29,417 bases of DNA from positions 1 to 29,417 of IMG/VR virus record IMGVR_UViG_3300029319_000333. The stretch is one strand, 5' to 3'. This document shows, piece after piece, positions 19,715 through 29,417 of the stretch. How positions within the stretch are numbered: the stretch's first letter is position 1; each line of letters begins with the position of its first letter. Source of the stretch: a virus (lineage: Duplodnaviria; Caudoviricetes). The notes under the pieces were generated by a model. That model ran no database searches. It was not told the DNA's origin and worked only from the letters and a program-made list of their open reading frames with translations. The translations under genes and the position numbers were made by a program.

Positions 19715-20377
19715 TCATGCGCCGAAGGCGAATATCTCGGCCTCGGATGCTCCGGACTGGGCTATCAGGTAAATCTCTCGCGGGACGTCTGCCCCGACCT
19801 GTCGGTCAGCAAACTCGCCAGGAAGAACCAGCCATCGACCAGGCTTGAGCAGGTGCTTGTTGTATCCCATTCGCAGGAACGTAGCGGTTGTGTCATTCGA
19901 GCTATCAGTTGGGGCCGTCGAGAAAGTCAGCTGGTTGTCGCTGTTCTTGGTGGCAATTAGGAAGCTGGTTCGGTTGTTGCTGTTCGATGCATTGTTCGAG
20001 TGAATGACTTCACCAGCCTCGCAGTTGGCGAAGCTATCACCGCTTGCTGCGTCGGTAAGTGTCTTTGCTGATGCAGCGAAGGTGACACCAGAGCCGCCGG
20101 GGTTCGCGATGGTTTCGAGTAAGGTGTACCAGATCACCATGATGTCGTTGGTTGTCCCACGATTCCGGATAGCCACCCCTGTCGTTGAGGGCATCTCTAA
20201 GCCGTAGAGATTGGAGAAGTCCACGCCCATGCCGGGGGTGGTGGGTACGGAGACTATGTGGTGGTAGTGCTCGGTGGGCGTTTCCGTCTGAGCACCACTG
20301 AGCGTCTTGGCGTATGGGTTCGAGTAATCAGAGTTTTCCGAGATAAGCCCTTGGACAACAATCTTTCCATACGCCAT
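19715..20377 (-). CDS. Hypothetical protein, virion-like S/T/N-rich composition
   Basis: 220 aa; GAGGAGAG RBS; 1 nt from terL start. Confidence 0.7.
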   Translation of the reverse strand: MAYGKIVVQGLISENSDYSNPYAKTLSGAQTETPTEHYHHIVSVPTTPGMGVDFSNLYGLEMPSTTGVAIRNRGTTNDIMVIWYTLLETIANPGGSGVTFAASAKTLTDAASGDSFANCEAGEVIHSNNASNSNNRTSFLIATKNSDNQLTFSTAPTDSSNDTTATFLRMGYNKHLLKPGRWLVLPGEFADRQVGADVPREIYLIAQSGASEAEIFAFGA

Positions 20378-20457
20378 CAGTCTCTCTCCTCGTTCTGCCG
20401 CTGCAACTCCTTGAGGAATGCAAGCACGGGATCATAGATTTTCTTCGCCAGCGCCAC
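20377..20457 (-). CDS. 26-aa micro-ORF (MALAKKIYDPVLAFLKELQRQNEERD)
   Basis: GTG 1 nt after the upstream TGA; its TGA overlaps the next ATG; fills the gap exactly; no clear RBS. Confidence 0.4.
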   Translation of the reverse strand: MALAKKIYDPVLAFLKELQRQNEERD

Positions 20458-20458
20458 T

Positions 20459-20845
20459 TCACTTGGCTCGCTGTCGCTTTCCTTTTCCGAACTCCAGGAT
20501 GTTTTCAAGTGTCTCCCCCTCCACCTTCGGCACCATATCATCAGCACGCTGCTTGTTCGACAACAAACCGCAGATGCGGGCCTCAAGCTCTACATACCTG
20601 AGTAACTCCTTTACCGGCTCGATGGAACCAACCCGCACCCCCTCCAGATACGCCTTCACACCCTCCGCCCGGTCAGCATCAGACCGATTGGGCATCGCCC
20701 GCACATCCACCACCCGCCAACCACGCTGCTCACGCAGCCACTGGACCACCACATCCGGAAGAACCTCAGCAATATACAGCGACTTAGGGCGCTCGTCCTC
20801 CGGCGCCACGGGCCAACTGCGCCATTTGTCCAGTCCATCGCTCAT
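20459..20845 (-). CDS. First late gene, candidate terminase small subunit
   Basis: 128 aa, helical C-half, AGGGG RBS; identity inferred from position only. Confidence 0.45.
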   Translation of the reverse strand: MSDGLDKWRSWPVAPEDERPKSLYIAEVLPDVVVQWLREQRGWRVVDVRAMPNRSDADRAEGVKAYLEGVRVGSIEPVKELLRYVELEARICGLLSNKQRADDMVPKVEGETLENILEFGKGKRQRAK

Positions 20846-20865
20846 CTCAACCCCTAAAGGACCCA

Positions 20866-20898
20866 GTCACGCGTGACATCTGCGTTATTCACGCGTGA
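20866..20898. promoter_or_regulatory. Tandem palindromic operators TCACGCGTGA
   Basis: GTCACGCGTGAC (20866-20877) and TCACGCGTGA (20889-20898), centres 22 bp apart. Confidence 0.65.
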
Positions 20899-20987
20899 CT
20901 AGGCCAAAAAACCGGCAAAACACAGAACTCTGTCAAGCATAATCGACTATACACCCCTGAGCAATAACAGGGACTTAGAAAAAAGAT

Positions 20988-21017
20988 TTGACTCGGGTAC
21001 AAAATACCCCGTACTCT
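20988..21017 (+). promoter_or_regulatory. Possible sigma70 promoter
   Basis: TTGACT-N18-TACTCT preceded by an A-tract; palindromic spacer CGGGTA...TACCCCG. Confidence 0.35.
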
Positions 21018-21207
21018 TCGCGTATCCCCCCTCAGAGTACAAAGCGGCCCCAGATGGTACCAAGGGTCACCCCTCTAAGATAAACACGTCAGGCTCTGCT
21101 CTGCTACGCTCCACGGTGTCTAACAGGGTGTACCTAGTTTCAAACGATTTCGTGTGCAAAGGGGTGTTGTTTGCCTAGATGGTACCGTGTACGCCCTGCA
21201 CCCACAG

Positions 21208-21520
21208 GTACCTTACACCGCGCGCGCCCGCGTGCGCTCGCGTACACGCGCGCGTGTTAGTATCCCGCGCGTACACGCGTGCGGTATGTAGTACACTGGG
21301 GGGGGGAGTTCCGGCAATCGTGGAAAGCGCGGCTTTGGAATTCCCCAACGATTCCCCCGGTTTACCATCGGCACCACCCGTACCCCCGAAACAAGCTCAG
21401 CGTACACGCGCACTTGCGCGCACGTCGCACGCACGCCCGCGCGCACACACGCGTCACGCACGCACACGCACCGCGCGTCCGTGCGCATGCCCGCGTCACG
21501 CGCCCGCACACGCGTTGCCA
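21208..21520. repeat. Alternating purine-pyrimidine (CG/CA) low-complexity tracts
   Basis: No purine-purine step on + over 21400-21520 or 21208-21259; GCGTACACGCG occurs three times. Confidence 0.85.
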
Positions 21521-21531
21521 ACCCCGTGCCA
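21516..21531 (-). promoter_or_regulatory. Possible leftward sigma54 promoter
   Basis: TGGCACGGGGTTGGCA = GG-N10-GC with perfect TGGCAC. Confidence 0.4.
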
Positions 21532-21569
21532 TGTGACCAGCCGGTCAGAAACACAAGCCGTGCCAACTG

Positions 21570-21619
21570 GTGCGAATTGCATTACGCACTTTGGGCATAG
21601 TGCGCACTGGTTTACGCAC
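21570..21619. promoter_or_regulatory. Two palindromic enhancer-like sites GTGCG-N10-CGCAC
   Basis: 21570-21589 and 21600-21619, 30 bp apart, both containing TTACGCAC followed by TTT. Confidence 0.6.
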
Positions 21620-21691
21620 TTTTCTGGGTATTCTGTTTCGCACTGAACATATTCCCAGTGCAATTTCATTGGGTTTTTTCGCTGGTCAGTT

Positions 21692-21708
21692 TTGGCATCG
21701 GCCCTGCA
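21692..21708 (+). promoter_or_regulatory. sigma54 (-24/-12) promoter for the early arm
   Basis: TTGGCATCGGCCCTGCA: GG(21694-5)-N10-GC(21706-7). Confidence 0.6.
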
Positions 21709-21719
21709 TAGTCTCCAGT

Positions 21720-22246
21720 GTACCGCGACTCCGGGAATGACCGGATGATGCCTAACTACTCACCCAACTCCCCTGCGGGGGGTTTAACGGGCTGGTTGTC
21801 TCAGGGAACGTGATTTCGCGTACTGGGGCACAGAGGATACGGCAAGGGGGCCCTATAAGTCCCCCCGCGTACATAGGTACGACGGAAACGCGATTTTTCA
21901 ACGTACTGGTTCTAGCTATATGGCCCCCTTGTTCGGGGTCCCCGCGTCCACATGCGCTTGGCCCCTGTTGGGTCTATGGTGGACGATTCACGGGTTCACG
22001 TGTGGACGGATTTGGTTTTCCCGTCCTTGATAGCTAGAACCCATGCGTGCGTCTCTTTGCGCACCGTGTCAAGCTCGAAGGTTGACCTCTTGTGGCATGA
22101 ATACCCACACGGGCGATGAAAACGAGACAGAAGGTATGTTAGAAGCTAACCGGGGGATATCTCCTCCTGACACGGCTGCGGTGACACTTAGGGACAGCGC
22201 ATGCAATCCAACCCAGGCCCCTGGGTTGGCTCATAGATTGTGTGAC
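21720..22246 (+). ncRNA. Candidate large structured RNA/leader of unknown family
   Basis: Many helices with G-U pairs, e.g. 21842-52/21922-32, 21908-19/22030-41 (12 bp perfect, crossing), 21945-51/21979-85, 22004-09/22021-26, 22064-71/22168-75, 22208-16/22221-29; no credible ORF. Confidence 0.55.
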
Positions 22247-22262
22247 AGAACAGGAACGCGAC

Positions 22263-22487
22263 ATGGGCTATATGCACAAGCGACCTGTGTCTTCATGGCA
22301 CGGTCATACCGCACAGGCCAGGCTTCTTCGGAAGTCTAAGCTAGTCCCTATCTCACTCTTACACCGCCGCAGTCGGGTGACCAAGGTCTACCCGACTACT
22401 GTACAACTCAAGAATGGCGAAGTCTGGAAAGTCACAAAACAGACCAACGCCGAAGGTCATCCTTTGATGAAGAAAGTCACCAAGTAA
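22263..22487 (+). CDS. Small highly basic protein (74 aa), possibly nucleic-acid-binding
   Basis: AGGA RBS before ATG 22263; 16 K/R versus 2 acidic residues. Confidence 0.65.
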   Translation: MGYMHKRPVSSWHGHTAQARLLRKSKLVPISLLHRRSRVTKVYPTTVQLKNGEVWKVTKQTNAEGHPLMKKVTK

Positions 22488-22639
22488 CATATACCGTCGC
22501 ACAATCTGTGAGCTGCCCCAGGGGTTATACTGGGCTGGCTTGACGATTCCCATATATCCCGCGCTGCCTAGGATGCCATAGCGGCACAAACACTTATGCA
22601 TTGCGTGAACGGGTCCCTGTGGGGTCGTCTCTAAGCCTG

Positions 22640-22736
22640 CCTAGTACTGGGTTGGCTACTCAGTATGGTGGGCATAGCCAGTCTTTTAGGCTAAACACAG
22701 TCAGCCCGCCATACTGAGCAGCCAATCCAGGCTGGG
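22640..22736 (+). promoter_or_regulatory. Long RNA hairpin (27-33 bp), RNase III-site-like
   Basis: 22647-22673 pairs with 22704-22730 (2 G-U, 1 A-C); inner TAGCC/GGCTA hairpin. Confidence 0.7.
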
Positions 22737-22744
22737 AAGGAAAC

Positions 22745-23710
22745 GTGACAAGCATGAGCATCCAACTCATTACACCAGAAAAGCAGTGCAATAAATTCCC
22801 TGAACTCAACCGGGAGTTAATCACTATGCCGATCGCTCAGAGTGTGGACATTCTGGCCCGGCAAAGCGAGGACCCGCGAATCAGGGAAAAGTTCTTAGAG
22901 TCTGAAGTGGTCGAGAGCGACGACTTCAGCATGGTGATGTGGGCCGACACCAAAGAGGTGATCGGCGTCAACAGTGCCAAGTACAGGCTTGTCCATCATG
23001 CCGACGTTGCCAACATGGCAGTGGAGACAGTGGAGAAGCTAACGGGATACACTCCAGACTGGTCTTACCATAAGATTGGCAGCAAGGGTGAAGGCCTGGA
23101 TAGCATCGCTATCCACATGGACTGCCCTGGCTTCAAACCCATCCGGGTAAACAATAGTCAGTGGCTCGATGGAGACACCAACTACAAGCCGGAGGTGGGA
23201 GACCTGACAAATCTGAAGTTCTTTCTGCGGAATGGGCTAACTGGTGGCTCTTTGATTGAAGCGTGTGCTCGATTGATGCGCCTATGGTGTGCCAATGGAG
23301 CCCAGACGCCACATGAGATCGGCCACTACAAGCACAAGCATACCGCCGGGCTGGACATTGACCGACTGGCGCAAAGCTTTGACCAGATGACTCATAACTC
23401 TCGGAAGCTTCCGGCGGTGTTCAACCACTGGAACGCTACGAAGTTAGACGCATCTGAGATCGAGAAGCTTGCTAATAGTCTAGAGGAGGCAAAGGTGAGC
23501 AAGTATCACCTTAAAGGCTTCCGTGACGCAGTCTCACGCGGTGGTTATATGACCAAGTGGGCGGCGTTCAACAAGATCACCAATCGGGCAACTCACCACG
23601 CACCAAGCATCAAGAACCAGATTGCTTTCGATAAGATTATCTCGAAAGTGTTCTGGAGCGACGATGAGACCAAAGAACTGCTGAACAACAACCTTGTTCT
23701 AGCGGCATAA
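22745..23710 (+). CDS. DUF932/DUF945-family protein (start may be ATG 22754)
   Basis: IGVNSAKYRLVHH, LRNGLTGG...RLWCANG, HKHT, TKWAAFNKIT match the family motif pattern. Confidence 0.8.
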   Translation: MTSMSIQLITPEKQCNKFPELNRELITMPIAQSVDILARQSEDPRIREKFLESEVVESDDFSMVMWADTKEVIGVNSAKYRLVHHADVANMAVETVEKLTGYTPDWSYHKIGSKGEGLDSIAIHMDCPGFKPIRVNNSQWLDGDTNYKPEVGDLTNLKFFLRNGLTGGSLIEACARLMRLWCANGAQTPHEIGHYKHKHTAGLDIDRLAQSFDQMTHNSRKLPAVFNHWNATKLDASEIEKLANSLEEAKVSKYHLKGFRDAVSRGGYMTKWAAFNKITNRATHHAPSIKNQIAFDKIISKVFWSDDETKELLNNNLVLAA

Positions 23711-23715
23711 TGTGA

Positions 23716-23737
23716 GCGGCCCCCGCAGGGGGGCCGC
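23716..23737 (+). other. Strong GC hairpin after DUF932 (no U-tract)
   Basis: GCGGCCCCC-GCAG-GGGGGCCGC. Confidence 0.7.
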
Positions 23738-23759
23738 AGCACGTTTCCAACCAGCCAAA

Positions 23760-24070
23760 ACAAATCGCATAGTGAACCGTAGGCCCATAACGGGCTGAGT
23801 GACGTGGGTGAATTCTGCCATCGCAATACAGGTGGCCACTGTGCCTGCTGCAACGGGCCAAGTTAGCCGCGACGTTGACGGATTGCAGTCCGAAGGCGGG
23901 GAGCCCAGGTGAAACAGGCTGAAGCCTGGGGTCCTGCTGTGCATAATCGAAGACTTACCTCCTGGCAGCTTAACTGCTGCACGAGGTAATTGGGCAAAGC
24001 CCACAGGGATATCTGGTCAGCATATCCCCGCTGAATGGCGATCCGGGGCCTAGGACCCGAGCTGGCCACA
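23760..24070 (+). ncRNA. Second candidate structured RNA (multibranch)
   Basis: Closing helix GTGGCCA/TGGCCAC (23832-38/24063-69) encloses hairpins 23879-92, 23896-937, 23955-89, 23991-24003, 24006-28. Confidence 0.5.
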
Positions 24071-24099
24071 ATCGACTCTCAAAACAGGAGGAGCCAGTT

Positions 24100-24450
24100 A
24101 TGACTGATGAAGATGTGCATGTGCTTAACCTGCTACGCCACCGCGTTATGCAGTGCTCAAAAGGCATAAAAGAATTCGAAGGCTTGGACGGAGGACCATA
24201 CGACAGTCACATAGCAATCACTCTTAGTCAAAGGGAGTTTCTTGTGGAGAAAAGAAGCAGAGCACTGTACGCGATGCTTCTGATGAATACATGCGACGGG
24301 GTCGATGGGGCTATACGGCATTTGCGTGAAAAGATAAGCGCCGACGCTGACGACATGCACTTAAAGCATACGCTTGACGATCTACTGCGCTCCAAGCAGG
24401 CAGTGTTTATACACAAGGCATTCCAAGCAAAGGAGCCCGGTGATGACTGA
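24100..24450 (+). CDS. Hypothetical early protein
   Basis: 116 aa; AGGAGG RBS. Confidence 0.75.
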   Translation: MTDEDVHVLNLLRHRVMQCSKGIKEFEGLDGGPYDSHIAITLSQREFLVEKRSRALYAMLLMNTCDGVDGAIRHLREKISADADDMHLKHTLDDLLRSKQAVFIHKAFQAKEPGDD

Positions 24451-24694
24451 AGACCATGGATGGGACATCGACCCAGACGACGACGACTTCGTCGCACAGT
24501 GCGACTGCAAGCCAGTGTGCAGTACCTATTTGTGTACTGGATGCAAAGAGCGCAAGCCCTTCTGTAATGGCGGGGCTGATGACTATCCCGACCTATGCGA
24601 TGAGTGTTGGAAGGATGAGCAGTCGATGAGGTGTGGATGCTCCGACTGGGGGTGCCCTTGTGACGGTCCCAAAACGGGATACATGGGAGGATGA
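24443..24694 (+). CDS. Cys-rich small protein (83 aa, 12 Cys), likely metal-binding
   Basis: Start re-called to ATG 24443 after AAGGAG; three CxC and two CxxC motifs. Confidence 0.7.
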   Translation: MTEDHGWDIDPDDDDFVAQCDCKPVCSTYLCTGCKERKPFCNGGADDYPDLCDECWKDEQSMRCGCSDWGCPCDGPKTGYMGG

Positions 24695-24695
24695 T

Positions 24696-24905
24696 ATGGG
24701 TCCACTGTACATAAAGGCCAAACACAAGGACGCAAAGCGATACAGCAGAATGGGCAGAGGGATTGGGGGATTCGACATGATCGTGACGAATGTCATCTTC
24801 TGTGTTTTCTATCCAGAGGAGGATATCGAAAGGGTAAGGGAGCTGATTGAGGAGTTTCGCTCCTTAAACCCTGACTACCGATTTAAACTAGCAAGGAGAA
24901 AGTAG
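24696..24905 (+). CDS. Hypothetical protein (69 aa)
   Basis: Start re-called to ATG 24696 after GGAGG. Confidence 0.7.
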   Translation: MGPLYIKAKHKDAKRYSRMGRGIGGFDMIVTNVIFCVFYPEEDIERVRELIEEFRSLNPDYRFKLARRK

Positions 24906-24920
24906 GAAAGGAAAAACCGG

Positions 24921-25700
24921 ATGGAAACGCGACAAGCCATCAACAAGAACGGGGTCATCCTATACAGGGGGCCCAGCCTTATCGATGGCAAGCCCATCGT
25001 CGTCATTGCGACAGGCCTCAAGCGTAAGAGCAAGAACGCCAAGACCAATGACATGATTCAAACATGGATCCTTCGTGACGACGTTCACCCGAAGGATGCC
25101 ATATACAATGGCGAGGATGCATCTATATGCGGCGACTGCCCGCATAGAGTAAGAGAGCATGCTGAGCCCAACTATCTGACCAAGCTGATACGCACCTGCT
25201 ACGTCAACATGAGGACACCCATCACAATATGGAATTGCCTCAAGCGTGGCGGCTACGAGGAGGCAACGGTCGAGCATGTGCGTGCCATACGCAAGAGGCA
25301 TGTCAGGCTGGGGTCATACGGCGACCCGGCTGCCGTACCCTTTGGGGTGTGGAAGCTGATCAAGCCAGCCAAGGACCGACACAGAACAGGCTACACCCAC
25401 CAGTGGGACTGGCCTGGCGTCGATGCCAGACTGAAGCAGTTGTGCATGGCTTCGGCTGACAGCGAGCAAGAGCGAGAGCGGGCACAGGCACAGGGCTGGC
25501 GTACCTTCGAGGTTCGTCCGCTGGGTGCCGATGCCCCTGAGCGTGGGTTTCAGTGTCCGAGTGATCCGGCACTAGACACACACAAGAGCTGCGAGGACTG
25601 TGGCGCATGCCATGGTGCCCCGCGTGGAGTCAAAGCGAGTCCATGGATTTATGCCCATGGACCAAGCAAAAAAAGAGTAGGGCTTAACATCCTACAATGA
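24921..25700 (+). CDS. Phage Cys-rich putative Fe-S / radical-SAM-like (GP88-related) protein
   Basis: ICGDCPHR...CYV, VRLGSYGDPAAVP, TGYTHQW, CP...CEDCGAC...HG; fold assignment is inference. Confidence 0.55.
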   Translation: METRQAINKNGVILYRGPSLIDGKPIVVIATGLKRKSKNAKTNDMIQTWILRDDVHPKDAIYNGEDASICGDCPHRVREHAEPNYLTKLIRTCYVNMRTPITIWNCLKRGGYEEATVEHVRAIRKRHVRLGSYGDPAAVPFGVWKLIKPAKDRHRTGYTHQWDWPGVDARLKQLCMASADSEQERERAQAQGWRTFEVRPLGADAPERGFQCPSDPALDTHKSCEDCGACHGAPRGVKASPWIYAHGPSKKRVGLNILQ

Positions 25701-25711
25701 GGAGACGCGAC

Positions 25712-26287
25712 ATGGATTTGAGCGATGTAATTGATGAGATGGAGGAAGCTAGCAGCAGAGCGGATGAGGCCAAGGACCTCGCCGAGAGCGCCGTAGACCA
25801 GCTTAAGGACAAGCTGGAAGAGATCAACCAGCTCAACAATGACTGGCGAGAGTACCTCGACGAGCACGTACACGAAGGAGACATTGCCGAGTACGTCATC
25901 AACAATTGCGGGAACGCGGCGCTCAATGCCATTGGCGGGCAGTCGCTAATCTACAAGCAGAAGAAGCTGGAGTCCGAGCAGGTACAGGCAGTGTACTGGG
26001 AAGAAGTGGAGGCCAACCGACTGGCGCGGGCTCTGATGGAGGCTGCGTTCTTGGCGGAGGCTAAGAGCCAGACCAAGTGGGTCAAGCCCTTGCTGGACAA
26101 GTTTGAGCAGGACAAGGTCAACGCCCACTTCGCTGAGTCACTGAAGACCGACCTGGCCGAAGGGCTCAGGCGTGCCGATGAGGCTGATGCCAGGTTCGCA
26201 AGACAACAAAAGATCGACGAGCTGTGGCTGCGAATGAAGCAGGTGCAGTCTGAGATTGAAGGGCTGAGAGGAGACGCGAATGAGTGA
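25712..26287 (+). CDS. Acidic coiled-coil hypothetical protein
   Basis: Start re-called to ATG 25712 after GAGGAG; 191 aa. Confidence 0.75.
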   Translation: MDLSDVIDEMEEASSRADEAKDLAESAVDQLKDKLEEINQLNNDWREYLDEHVHEGDIAEYVINNCGNAALNAIGGQSLIYKQKKLESEQVQAVYWEEVEANRLARALMEAAFLAEAKSQTKWVKPLLDKFEQDKVNAHFAESLKTDLAEGLRRADEADARFARQQKIDELWLRMKQVQSEIEGLRGDANE

Positions 26288-26801
26288 TGTTGAAGGGTTT
26301 AAGCGGTGGTTGGAGGATGACCCTCGCACGATGTATGATTTCAACTGGGACGACTGGGCAGGGTGCGCGACGTACGTTACCACCGACACCAGCTACAAGT
26401 CTGGCCCCAGTAACGACCTTACCTTGATCTGTGTTGAGGCCAAGGTGCGGCGCCCCCTCCTCCCCTCCATTGTCGAGGGTGAGCTTGACTGGGGCACCTC
26501 GGACGTAGATGTTCGGGGGGCGCCTTGGTGGTGGTATCCGAACATGCGCTACGGGCGGGTGTCCGCCAAGTACATGATCGGTGACAAAATCTGGGGATAC
26601 GAGCAGCGCGACCATGACGCGTGTCTCTACCTTGGCTCGCACGAGATTCACCTTGAGCCCGGTGACATTATCCGGTGCCTCGATGGGCCAGGCATCAATG
26701 CCATCGACACGGAGTTTTACGGCAAGGACGCTGCTCGTGAGCTTGCCCGAATCGACAAGGCCTATGGCGATTTGCCTGTGGTTGATAGCTGGAATGGATA
26801 A
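26280..26801 (+). CDS. Hypothetical protein (acidic, W/Y-rich)
   Basis: 173 aa; GAGGAG RBS; overlaps upstream stop. Confidence 0.75.
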   Translation: MSDVEGFKRWLEDDPRTMYDFNWDDWAGCATYVTTDTSYKSGPSNDLTLICVEAKVRRPLLPSIVEGELDWGTSDVDVRGAPWWWYPNMRYGRVSAKYMIGDKIWGYEQRDHDACLYLGSHEIHLEPGDIIRCLDGPGINAIDTEFYGKDAARELARIDKAYGDLPVVDSWNG

Positions 26802-26818
26802 CAAAGAGGAGACGCGTG

Positions 26819-27016
26819 ATGGATAACCCAATCGTAAAGACCCACCTTGCTGCGACGTATGAGACGCAGGAGCAGTTGCATAAAGCAATAGAGGGCTTCA
26901 GCACGAACGGTGAGAAGGCAGCAGCCACTCTCTTGTTCATGCTAACATGGAACTTTTGCGCCAGGCAGTTTGATCTGGCTATCGAGGAGGCTGAGGATGG
27001 CGAACCAGAAACCTAA
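26819..27016 (+). CDS. Hypothetical protein (65 aa)
   Basis: GAGGAG RBS; ATG 26819 (or GTG 26816). Confidence 0.7.
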   Translation: MDNPIVKTHLAATYETQEQLHKAIEGFSTNGEKAAATLLFMLTWNFCARQFDLAIEEAEDGEPET

Positions 27017-27245
27017 GGGCGTAGACGTTGACTTTGTCTTTGCTGAGATGAATGCGCTCACTGAGCTGTGCCAGCAGAGTGGCATGTGCCCTGCTGAGTT
27101 CTTTACACACGTTTTGAACTACACGTTCAGCGCCCTCGGTGCTGCTTGCCCAAGCCCCACCGACCTCATGCAGGTTGTGGGCGAGGCGATGTCGTACGGT
27201 GGGCAAACTGCAAGCAGGATGCTGGAGCAAATGGATGAGCACTAG
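26997..27245 (+). CDS. Hypothetical protein (82 aa)
   Basis: Start re-called to ATG 26997 after GGAGG. Confidence 0.65.
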   Translation: MANQKPKGVDVDFVFAEMNALTELCQQSGMCPAEFFTHVLNYTFSALGAACPSPTDLMQVVGEAMSYGGQTASRMLEQMDEH

Positions 27246-27435
27246 CGCAGTGGCCTACGTTTTTTGGGCAGCCTACACATTGTTTGTCGCATTCTGCGTC
27301 AGATGGCTTGTTGTCTACATCGCAGATCTGCGGAGAGATCGCGCAGACAAGCTACGCGTAAAGATAAACGACGAGCAGTGGCGCAAGCTCAAGGAGGAGT
27401 TGCATGAGCAAGCACGCTTTACCGACCGACGCTAA
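27235..27435 (+). CDS. Small membrane protein (66 aa)
   Basis: Start re-called to ATG 27235 after GGAG; N-terminal TM AVAYVFWAAYTLFVAFCVRWLVVYI, charged tail. Confidence 0.65.
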   Translation: MSTSAVAYVFWAAYTLFVAFCVRWLVVYIADLRRDRADKLRVKINDEQWRKLKEELHEQARFTDRR

Positions 27436-28030
27436 CCCTCTCGCCAAAGCAATTGGCAAGAAGCTAACGTTTGTCGTCAAGCAACGCCAAGTGGAGTGGG
27501 CTGATGCTGCGCGCCAGTGCGGCATCGGACCCAACCGCTTTCACTACATCCTTCAAGGTGCGCAGGTTCCGGACGAGCGAGAGGCGCAGCGCATTGCTGG
27601 CTGGTTGTTCGAAGCCAAGGACTACACCAAGGACCCGCTACCCAAGACGCCTGCCAAGGTGCGCAAGGGTCGTGGGTTCAAGGCGGTCAAGGTAGACATA
27701 CCAGGCAAGCTTCACGATCGCATGCTGAGGTCAGCGAGCAGGCTTGGCTTGAGTCACAGCGGCATTGTGCAGCTTGCCCTGGAGAGACTGCTCGACAACG
27801 AGCCTATCATGTACGCTTTCGAGCTTGCCGGTGAGCGACTCAACCGAGCCCGCGTTAATGATTACCTAGAGGCTGCGCCAACAATAAAGATTATCCTAGA
27901 GGGTGACGTGGAGCTGGCTGTCCAGATGGGCGCAAAGCTCACGCCACCAAAGCAGAAACCCAAGCCCATGCAAACACACCAGGTGCTTGACGTGAGCATC
28001 GGGGAGGACGACTGGGAGGTAATCGAGTGA
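27404..28030 (+). CDS. Transcription regulator: XRE-like HTH fused to ribbon-helix-helix
   Basis: WADAARQCGIGPNRFHYILQGAQVP (HTH) and VKVDIPGKLHDRMLRSASRLGLSHSGIVQLALERLL (RHH); AAGGAGG RBS. Confidence 0.7.
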   Translation: MSKHALPTDANPLAKAIGKKLTFVVKQRQVEWADAARQCGIGPNRFHYILQGAQVPDEREAQRIAGWLFEAKDYTKDPLPKTPAKVRKGRGFKAVKVDIPGKLHDRMLRSASRLGLSHSGIVQLALERLLDNEPIMYAFELAGERLNRARVNDYLEAAPTIKIILEGDVELAVQMGAKLTPPKQKPKPMQTHQVLDVSIGEDDWEVIE

Positions 28031-28209
28031 GCGACGTAGCTATTCAAAACTGTGAGTTCCGCCTGCCCGGTGACGACAAGTGGATGCTCGCTCGCACTCG
28101 CTGGCCGATGACAACGGAGGAGCAAGACCGCAGGCTTCGCACCAAGTGGGGCCCGGACATAGAGATTCGTCGCAAGCCTAGAAAGTCGGCCCCTCATCTA
28201 GCCAGCTAG
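28027..28209 (+). CDS. Hypothetical protein (60 aa)
   Basis: GTGA overlap with upstream stop; GGAGG RBS. Confidence 0.55.
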   Translation: MSDVAIQNCEFRLPGDDKWMLARTRWPMTTEEQDRRLRTKWGPDIEIRRKPRKSAPHLAS

Positions 28210-28393
28210 ATGGGGGAATTCCAAACTCTCTTTCAATCATCACCGCTTGGAACAGGGTAGGCGGCCTCCTGCCTGTCGTAAGGTGTTGCAGCTGTCCGGC
28301 TGACATCTGCATCGAAGAGGCGACCTTTTTCTTCGTCCAGCCTTCTCGCAATCTTTCATCAACACACTCTTGCAATTCTCGTACAGGATCCAT
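28178..28393 (-). CDS. Cro/XRE-family HTH regulator (about 71 aa)
   Basis: GWTKKKVASSMQMSAGQLQHLTTGRRPPTLFQAVMIEREFGIPPSSW; start re-called to ATG 28393 (alternative 28405). Confidence 0.75.
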   Translation of the reverse strand: MDPVRELQECVDERLREGWTKKKVASSMQMSAGQLQHLTTGRRPPTLFQAVMIEREFGIPPSSWLDEGPTF

Positions 28394-28413
28394 AAAAACT
28401 GTCATACCAATGC

Positions 28414-28428
28414 TGCACAATCTGTGCA
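28414..28428. promoter_or_regulatory. Palindromic operator TGCACA-ATC-TGTGCA
   Basis: Perfect 6-bp inverted repeat between the divergent HTH and nuclease genes. Confidence 0.65.
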
Positions 28429-28443
28429 ACATAAGGAAACGCG

Positions 28444-29417
28444 ATGAACATAGTAACTGCATCAAGCCTAAACACTTACTCGAAGTGTCCTCGCCGGTAC
28501 CAGTACAGGTACATGGAGGAGTTCGAGTCCACCCTACCGCAAGAGGCCTTGCTTGTCGGCACAGCTGTGCATATTGGCATCGAGCGCTTCTGGCTCGGCG
28601 ACACGGCGACTGACATGTTCCTGGCTGTTGACGAGTATTACAGAGAGAGCCCCACGTTCTGGTCTAGCAAGCGGGGCGAGGTCGAGCAGGCCAAGGTCGC
28701 AGCATACCTCTACGGGTACATCAAGGAGCGATCTCCAATGGTAGGCGAATACGAGGTGCTGGGCGTTGAGGAGGAGTGGCGCGAAACGCTACACGTGCAG
28801 CAGATGGACTTGCACTCGCAGCGTGCCGGCAAGTTTGACCTGGTTATCCGACGCAAGGCAGACGGTGAGGTTTTCGTTGTTGACCATAAGACTAGCGGAT
28901 CTCGTGACATTGAGGACCCAGCGTCGCTGTTCTGGTCAAAGCTTGTGTTTGACACACAGGTCGTCATGTACCTGGACGCAGCGCAGCGCAAGTACAACTT
29001 GAGCAGGCGCCCGCGATTTGTTTACGACGTCATTCGCAAAACGAAATCCAAGCCGTCAATGACCAAGCGAGTTGCGCGGCGAAAGACTGAGACCAAGTTT
29101 CAATTTGAGTCACGCAAGGCGAGTGTCACTGAAACGTTTGCCCAGTACCGTGCACGTATTCTAAAAGAATACACGAACGACCCGTCACGGTACATGTGGC
29201 GAGAAATCCTTATCACCCACGACGAGGTAGAGCGCAGGCAGGACGAGCTGTTCCTGCTTGAGAAGCAGATTCAAAACGCACCGCTGGCGTACGACCTGCC
29301 TCGAAACCCAAACGCGTGCATGTCTGCATGGGGCGCTTGCCCCTACTTCCCTGTCTGCGCAGGGCAAGATGACCTCAGCACGTCAGATGCATACCGGCAC
29401 AAACCGGCCCACTCAGA
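28444..29417 (+). CDS. PD-(D/E)XK RecB/AddB/Cas4-like exonuclease with 4-Cys Fe-S staple (runs off the window; absent from the ORF track)
   Basis: Read by hand: MNIVTASSLNTYSKCPRRY, GTAVH, VLGVEEE, GKFDLV, VVDHKT, QVVMY, ACMSAWGACPYFPVC; AAGGA RBS. Confidence 0.9.
   Translation, partial: MNIVTASSLNTYSKCPRRYQYRYMEEFESTLPQEALLVGTAVHIGIERFWLGDTATDMFLAVDEYYRESPTFWSSKRGEVEQAKVAAYLYGYIKERSPMVGEYEVLGVEEEWRETLHVQQMDLHSQRAGKFDLVIRRKADGEVFVVDHKTSGSRDIEDPASLFWSKLVFDTQVVMYLDAAQRKYNLSRRPRFVYDVIRKTKSKPSMTKRVARRKTETKFQFESRKASVTETFAQYRARILKEYTNDPSRYMWREILITHDEVERRQDELFLLEKQIQNAPLAYDLPRNPNACMSAWGACPYFPVCAGQDDLSTSDAYRHKPAHS

Follow-up and report, generated by a model that had tools for sequence, protein, structure and literature searches.

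RegA of phage T4 shuts off a group of early mRNAs through a sequence in the region of the ribosome-binding site (RBS). In phages P1 and P7, the C4 antisense RNA exposes two segments, one of which acts over an RBS, and its specificity shifts through matched changes of loop and target (PMC5320573, excerpt). The start-associated sequences (SAS) of cluster K mycobacteriophages form an over-conserved motif, in one orientation, at the RBSs of non-structural genes; the excerpted report leaves open what reads them, RNA or protein, and records four K1 genomes with a single SAS copy in the opposite orientation (PMC3203893). A SAS-like motif is also found in Microbacterium cluster EF (PMC7302621, excerpt). 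Here we describe a nine-letter sequence, GGARACGCG (the tag), at early-gene RBSs of IMG/VR record IMGVR_UViG_3300029319_000333, a fragment of an uncultured tailed phage whose complete 29,417 nt are called the window, together with a hairpin whose loop is antisense to the tag. The tag is probably an address on early-gene RBSs whose reader is a small antisense RNA, the hairpin, which would pair through its loop and jointly shut the genes off.

Such an RNA would resemble C4 in being a trans-acting phage RNA of similar size with exposed segments, here the loop in all lineages and a bulge in the relatives G003 and G010, the bulge being absent from the window's lineage. It differs in consisting of one long interrupted hairpin with a bulge, as opposed to the three stem-loops P1-P3 of C4, and in having dispersed, non-homologous targets and a place in a replication block, whereas C4 targets an immunity operon. 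Because the Rfam C4 models gave no match at E<=1 in the four loci L083, L073, L101 and L131 and the fold is different, we regard the hairpin as an element that would work like C4 but, judged from its sequence, is not a C4 member. The tag shares with SAS its asymmetry, its conservation and its single orientation at RBSs of non-structural genes; it differs from SAS in sequence (the listed window starts do not carry the 13-bp SAS consensus), in that its conserved part lies between the Shine-Dalgarno sequence (SD) and the ATG, and in having a candidate reader with covariation. Inverted repeats of the ESAS kind were not seen, although no search was aimed at them. T4 RegB and RegA likewise bring about group shut-off of early mRNAs via a sequence in the RBS region (RegB: PMC3014915, excerpt), but they are protein readers, and the RegB site GGAG/U is absent from the GGAAAC copies described here. 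PreS, OOP and VpdS are phage-encoded base-pairing regulators with an unpaired seed, as the hairpin would be; PreS acts mainly on host mRNAs and OOP in cis on one mRNA, and the excerpted text describes none of the three as reading a private tag on many RBSs of its own phage (bioRxiv 10.1101/2024.10.31.621285). A literature search in which subscription journals were thinly covered returned no paper on a multi-target anti-RBS phage RNA, with PreS the nearest return. The predicted hairpin has the conserved single-stranded seed, complementary to several targets and accompanied by covariation, by which trans-acting small RNAs are recognized, and tag and hairpin together probably represent a new variant of trans-acting phage antisense control.

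The tag at early-gene starts

In the window, the minus strand carries the terminase, portal and capsid genes as far as about 20850; small genes occupy the plus strand from 22263 until the window ends within a PD-(D/E)XK exonuclease gene; the plus-strand genes are called early on the basis of their position and content. The original prediction placed the tag at RBSs of early genes and at none of the late genes, and on both counts it was borne out. Six exact copies of GGARACGCG were found in the window, all on the plus strand (21884, 24923, 25701, 26270, 26808 and 28435), against 0.55 expected, and none of 100 shuffles reached six. Variants were confirmed at 22253 (GGAACGCG), 22739 (GGAAACGTG) and 21804-05, the last being, with the copy at 21884, one of the two predicted leader copies. 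Within -20 to +15, GGA(R)ACG(C/T)G was present at 7 of 14 curated early-strand starts and at 0 of 20 late-strand starts, a difference (Fisher p=6e-4) that is inflated because the motif was defined on these very sites; independent support for the placement comes from relatives. Two copies had been missed in the original prediction, a reverse complement at 23740-23748 and a copy at 25910 that lies inside a coding region and not at a start. The GTG at 22745, taken earlier as the start of the DUF932 gene, is less likely to be so used than the ATG at 22754, which is in frame and from which the ortholog in a close relative, L001, aligns.

The motif was also present at starts in relatives, including loci whose exonuclease is 40-48% identical to that of the window; these carry it at the starts of many non-homologous genes, mostly 0-2 nt before the ATG. 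In G001 the tag also stands ahead of genes that the window lacks, in L077 five consecutive genes have near-identical tags, and neighbouring cassettes are replaced between strains. No tag enrichment was seen in G004 and G005 (1-2 matches). Across the locus of a 173-aa gene of the window, L001 consists of the left flank, a single tag and the right flank; the gene has thus been lost exactly between two tags, which argues that the tag also serves as a crossover point.

An antisense hairpin and its match to the tags

The hairpin lies outside the window, at L001:12374-12434, about 1.4 kb beyond the window end, after Sak4-like and SSB-like genes and before a replication initiator gene (the Sak4-like and initiator genes were assigned by PHROG, the SSB-like gene by its position and acidic tail). 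L001 is 97.7% identical to the window over the window's last 1392 nt. The marine metagenomes considered below are runs that contain a close relative of the window phage, and in two of them a single contig holds both the window's exonuclease and the hairpin, with the same length, depth and 926-nt offset. Wherever a tag-bearing locus extends across the spacer between the SSB-like and initiator genes, a reverse tag copy is present there on the transcribed strand, with one base changed in G010. Eight reverse tag copies were found in eight genome pieces, all of them in non-coding elements of two kinds: five are in the loop, and three in a conserved element that follows the DUF932 gene.

All seven aligned spacers have the same 20-nt loop, antisense to the tag, between flanks that vary. 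Counted from the loop, the inner stem was paired at 6 of 6 positions in all six distinct arm pairs; when arms were swapped between spacers (30 swaps), 3.0 of 6 pairs formed on average, with a maximum of 5 and never 6. RNAalifold applied to a MAFFT alignment of the spacers gave a weak signal. The plus strand of the hairpin, which uses U-G pairs, folds better than the minus strand (-38.6 vs -31.6; z -4.1 for the plus strand), and a pyrimidine run follows it. In four metagenomic runs the sole stem variant turned a U-G into a C-G pair and the loop was unchanged. Three of eight viral-contig matches to the 16-nt loop core (L093, L097 and L098) were set aside, as they lie in unrelated contexts without hairpin or tags.

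Both strands were searched for the sites that pair best, in antiparallel orientation, with the loop, and the top 10 sites were scored against early starts, with 60 shuffled loops for comparison. Eight of the top 10 sites in the window were those named in the original prediction (five starts, the first codons at 24921 and both leader copies). Five of the 10 lay within the preset distance of a start, as against 0.35 on average for shuffled loops, none of which reached five. The share at early starts was 5/10 in G001, 4/10 in G002 and 3/10 in G010, each above all 60 shuffles. Predicted duplexes of the loop with nine window sites ranged from -18.5 to -26.3 kcal/mol. The leader copies, thought earlier to be decoys, look instead like further pairing targets, with 12-13 contiguous loop pairs; in the one at 21804..21815, every difference from the loop complement is G-U compatible, and this copy is missing from L001 together with about 150 nt of leader. 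Pairing with the loop extended past the 9-mer at sites that are not starts (L086 9940 and two leader sites of G002), a feature that translation initiation leaves unexplained. At the L086 site (L086:9940-9956), where the loop pairs best in that locus, there is no start codon; the last early gene lies on one side of it and the probable promoter of the exonuclease gene on the other, and sites placed in the same way occur in L069, L084, L090, L091 and G010.

Variation within the tag looks like that expected of a sequence under RNA pairing. Seven early regions gave 30 tag variants that have a single change and are followed by an ATG, and 23 of these were of the wobble type (A>G or C>T, with pairing kept via G-U), a tally of small numbers with orthologs not collapsed. 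At positions 5-9, outside the SD, eight were of the wobble type and one was not. G7>A was not seen before any ATG, and C8>T was common. The collapsed tally, which includes spurious internal ATGs, gave C>T 15 vs G>A 4 (p=0.02).

Lineages that differ in the tag also differ in the hairpin. G003 is without the GGA(R)ACGYG tag, and six of its early starts have ACCAAGG in common. The complement of ACCAAGG, predicted beforehand to lie in the G003 spacer, was found there as CCCTTGGTTGT, in a 5' bulge and not in the tip; 3 of the top 10 sites for this bulge were at starts, compared with 0/60 shuffles. The tip loop of G003 has also changed, and by eye it matches two G003 starts (GAGAAACACT and GGAGAACACTAC). 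In cross tests of the tip, the G001-type loop scored 0/10 at G003 starts and the G003 loop 0/10 in five other genomes. G010 has, like G003, the ACCAAGG bulge, with the ACCAAGG tag at its genes for the exonuclease and Sak4; the G002 group has a CCCTGG bulge and, at these two genes, ACCAGGGAG. A bulge of only 2-5 nt is left in the window's lineage, where the exonuclease gene bears the tip tag.

Weighing the readings

The tag placement, the lone antisense copy in the loop, the covarying stem, the strand asymmetry and the matched loop/tag differences were all observed. From these we infer transcription and release of the hairpin, pairing in trans, repression as the outcome, and its timing. Since the hairpin closes the exonuclease-Sak4-SSB block and the pyrimidine run comes after it, it likely gives an RNA of about 60-90 nt, formed by a terminator or by processing. 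In the mechanism we propose, this 60-90-nt RNA would arise from the 3' end of the block, and its loop would pair across the SD-to-ATG stretch of tagged mRNAs and block initiation. Early accessory genes would be shut together once the replication operon is transcribed, and the exonuclease would be subject to feedback as replication functions accumulate. The 5' bulge may be a second address in most lineages, lost in that of the window, where the exonuclease would have come under the loop tag.

Several results weigh against this reading. The G003 loop placed only 1/10 of its top sites at starts (3/60 shuffles equalled this), its best two sites lying 25-57 nt inside early genes; the G002 and L086 bulges scored 0/10 in the pairing scan, and the G003 bulge also matches 2/10 G001 starts. 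Independent switches are few, one for the loop and about two for the bulge, and a hairpin in a distant clade (L129/L133) gave a start match of 2/10 that was not significant (21 and 8 of 100 shuffles). Four G1>A variants and one G9>A variant of the tag break a pair, as do two transversions. The SD-like 3' end of the loop pairs weakly with many RBSs (8/23 late starts at -12 kcal/mol), and specificity must therefore rest on the CGCG part; an energy cut-off of -12 separated early from late starts poorly. The window's own genome is assigned a hairpin from near-identical relatives. Finally, copies without a start codon, in the leader and, in the G002 group, before the likely exonuclease promoter, fit occlusion of the RBS poorly and leave room for cleavage or termination.

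Pairing over the SD-to-ATG stretch usually blocks initiation. Most sites cover this stretch, 0-2 nt before the ATG, and we consider it unlikely that the loop pairs with the tags to cause cleavage, transcription termination or activation and not ribosome occlusion, even though a start codon is lacking at some of the sites that pair best (21884 and 21804 in the window, L086 9940 and the G002 leader), early genes within long stems are suggestive of processing, and PreS both represses and activates (bioRxiv 10.1101/2024.10.31.621285, excerpt). The shared translational operator of the original prediction stands in so far as the tag is conserved at non-homologous starts and most likely acts at the RNA level; its RegA/RegB-like protein reader found no support. 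RegB inactivates T4 early mRNAs at GGAG/U (PMC3014915, excerpt), and the minus strand of the hairpin can fold as well (-31.6, z -3.85), in which case the tag would be exposed, as expected if a RegA-, RegB- or CsrA-like protein read the mRNA and an opposite-strand hairpin were its decoy. We find this improbable, given that the U-G pairs and pyrimidine tail favour the plus strand, a single copy makes a poor sponge, tag variation is of the wobble type, and no RegA- or RegB-like Pfam or PHROG match was obtained among the 35 window and five downstream proteins. The 74-aa protein proposed as reader was present only in G001 among seven relatives searched and is missing from G002, which is complete and uses the tag.

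Cassette exchange had been offered as a fallback, the tag being a recombination scar. The loss of the 173-aa gene exactly between two tags bears this out for one cassette, and the five-gene tag row of L077 and the swapping of neighbouring cassettes between strains point the same way. A homology patch arising from and serving such exchange, with no regulatory reader, is nevertheless very improbable, since it leaves unexplained the antisense copy held invariant in the loop, the tags on core genes (the exonuclease gene and the gene after the initiator) and the second loop/tag pair. Lowest in our estimate is a double-stranded DNA site, an operator or promoter element bound by a phage helix-turn-helix (HTH) protein. 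Two HTH genes are present, and by eye, a TATAAT-like box ahead of the L086 exonuclease gene is preceded, at a distance of about 17 nt, by one tag copy; set against this are the strict orientation and register of the tag to the ATG, the frequency of C8>T and absence of G7>A before the ATG, and a separate palindrome at the exonuclease promoter. In addition, the HTH helix of the 208-aa protein differs among tag-sharing lineages, and G003, whose tag has changed, has a window-like helix.

An antisense RNA that reads the tag would, if confirmed, be a compact and evolvable alternative to the known shut-off of phage early genes by proteins such as RegB, silencing a changeable set of accessory genes via a nine-letter tag, and with the tag as crossover point each new cassette would be controlled on arrival. 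It would also be a candidate answer to the question, raised in 2011, of what reads the start-associated sequences. More speculative is an RNA-addressed regulon in which one hairpin has two address loops, accessory genes join by recombining at the tag, genes are re-addressed as lineages diverge (the exonuclease going from bulge tag to loop tag upon loss of the bulge), and the same logic covers at least some start-associated sequences of cultured phages; we put this forward as a tentative idea that may well not hold as a whole. For the SAS of cluster K, the hairpin reading met with mixed results. The lone reverse SAS of Anaya occupies the loop of a hairpin in the gp96-gp97 spacer (L152:29840-29910), on the transcribed strand; this stretch, matched by 150 records, is structured and conserved among cluster K phages. 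Among eight aligned spacers the loop was exact in three, drifted in three and lost in two; in Ekdilam and Shandong1 the loop has drifted and SAS is unchanged, and in TM4 and Pixie no antisense SAS copy was seen in the stretches examined. Drifted loops with the same SAS, and the absence of an antisense copy in TM4 and Pixie, indicate that SAS in general is not explained in this way.

Features and neighbouring elements

Table 1. Tag copies and associated features of the window (energies in kcal/mol; those of tag and leader copies are predicted for pairing with the loop)
Feature	Position	Strand	Remarks
Leader copy, variant GGGAACGTGATT	21804..21815	+	no start codon; -20.0 with G001 loop
Leader copy GGAAACGCGATT	21884..21895	+	no start codon; kept in L001; 12 contiguous loop pairs, -20.4
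Predicted 29-bp long-range stem (22218-22246 with 22496-22524) that would enclose 74-aa gene	22218..22524	+	-56.0
Tag, one A shorter, at RBS of 74-aa gene	22252..22265	+	-18.5, weakest; outside top 10 loop-pairing sites
Second long-range stem	22647-22673 with 22704-22730	+	-56.7
Tag GGAAACGTG at RBS of DUF932 gene	22737..22756	+	-23.3
GC hairpin, then reverse tag copy CACGTTTCCAACCAGCC	23716..23756	+	complements DUF932 RBS, -29.1
Tag in first codons of phrog_2554 gene	24921..24938	+	best loop-pairing site in window, -26.3
Tag at RBS of 191-aa gene	25699..25714	+	-25.2
Tag at RBS of 173-aa gene	26268..26282	+	left crossover of cassette missing from L001
173-aa accessory gene	26280..26801	+	flanked by two tag copies
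Tag at RBS of 65-aa gene	26806..26821	+	right crossover
Tag at RBS of PD-(D/E)XK exonuclease gene	28433..28446	+	-22.5
Exonuclease gene	28444..29417	+	cut by contig end

The element at 23716..23756 is invariant across the window, L001 and L077, and its reverse copy (23740-23756) and the DUF932 RBS likely form a cis long-range stem that closes the gene. It lies in a non-coding stretch of 390 nt (23711-24099) with several hairpins and no Rfam match, the first 258 nt of which are 96% conserved in L001, though both neighbours differ; about 130 nt of the stretch are missing from L001 and nearly all of it from L077. Predicted stems of 25-30 bp (-51 to -57 kcal/mol) each enclose early genes (window 22218-22524 and 22647-22730; L001 3664-4982, where stems of this kind enclose three genes). 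Several have CTGGGTTGGCT in common, they mark cassette ends, and they look like RNase III processing stems.

A search of 50,697 phage records for a cultured relative gave no DNA match and capsid matches of just ~25%, and a genome-contig search for the host gave distant initiator matches only. The Rfam scan of 20300-29417 returned a single small nucleolar RNA match, judged to be chance; no tRNA was found, and a sigma-70 promoter scan scored under the shuffle level. Between the divergent arms, at 21216-21512, are CG/CA-rich low-complexity repeats that are kept in L001 and are possibly a packaging or origin region.

In a distant clade (L129:7240-7320, L133:11440-11500, L131, L132 and L134), the SSB-like gene is immediately followed by a strong hairpin whose loop is rich in pyrimidines. 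A tagged early gene, at L072:5013 (G002) and L070:851, encodes an N-terminus that by eye resembles a C5 cytosine methyltransferase. Ahead of the exonuclease gene, a palindrome at 28414-28432 (TGCACAATCTGTGCA) adjoins a divergent 71-aa HTH gene (28178-28393, minus strand) and is likely a DNA operator distinct from the tag; similar palindromes occupy the same place in G002, G003 and L086, and part of it recurs at 22499, in the stem of the 74-aa gene.

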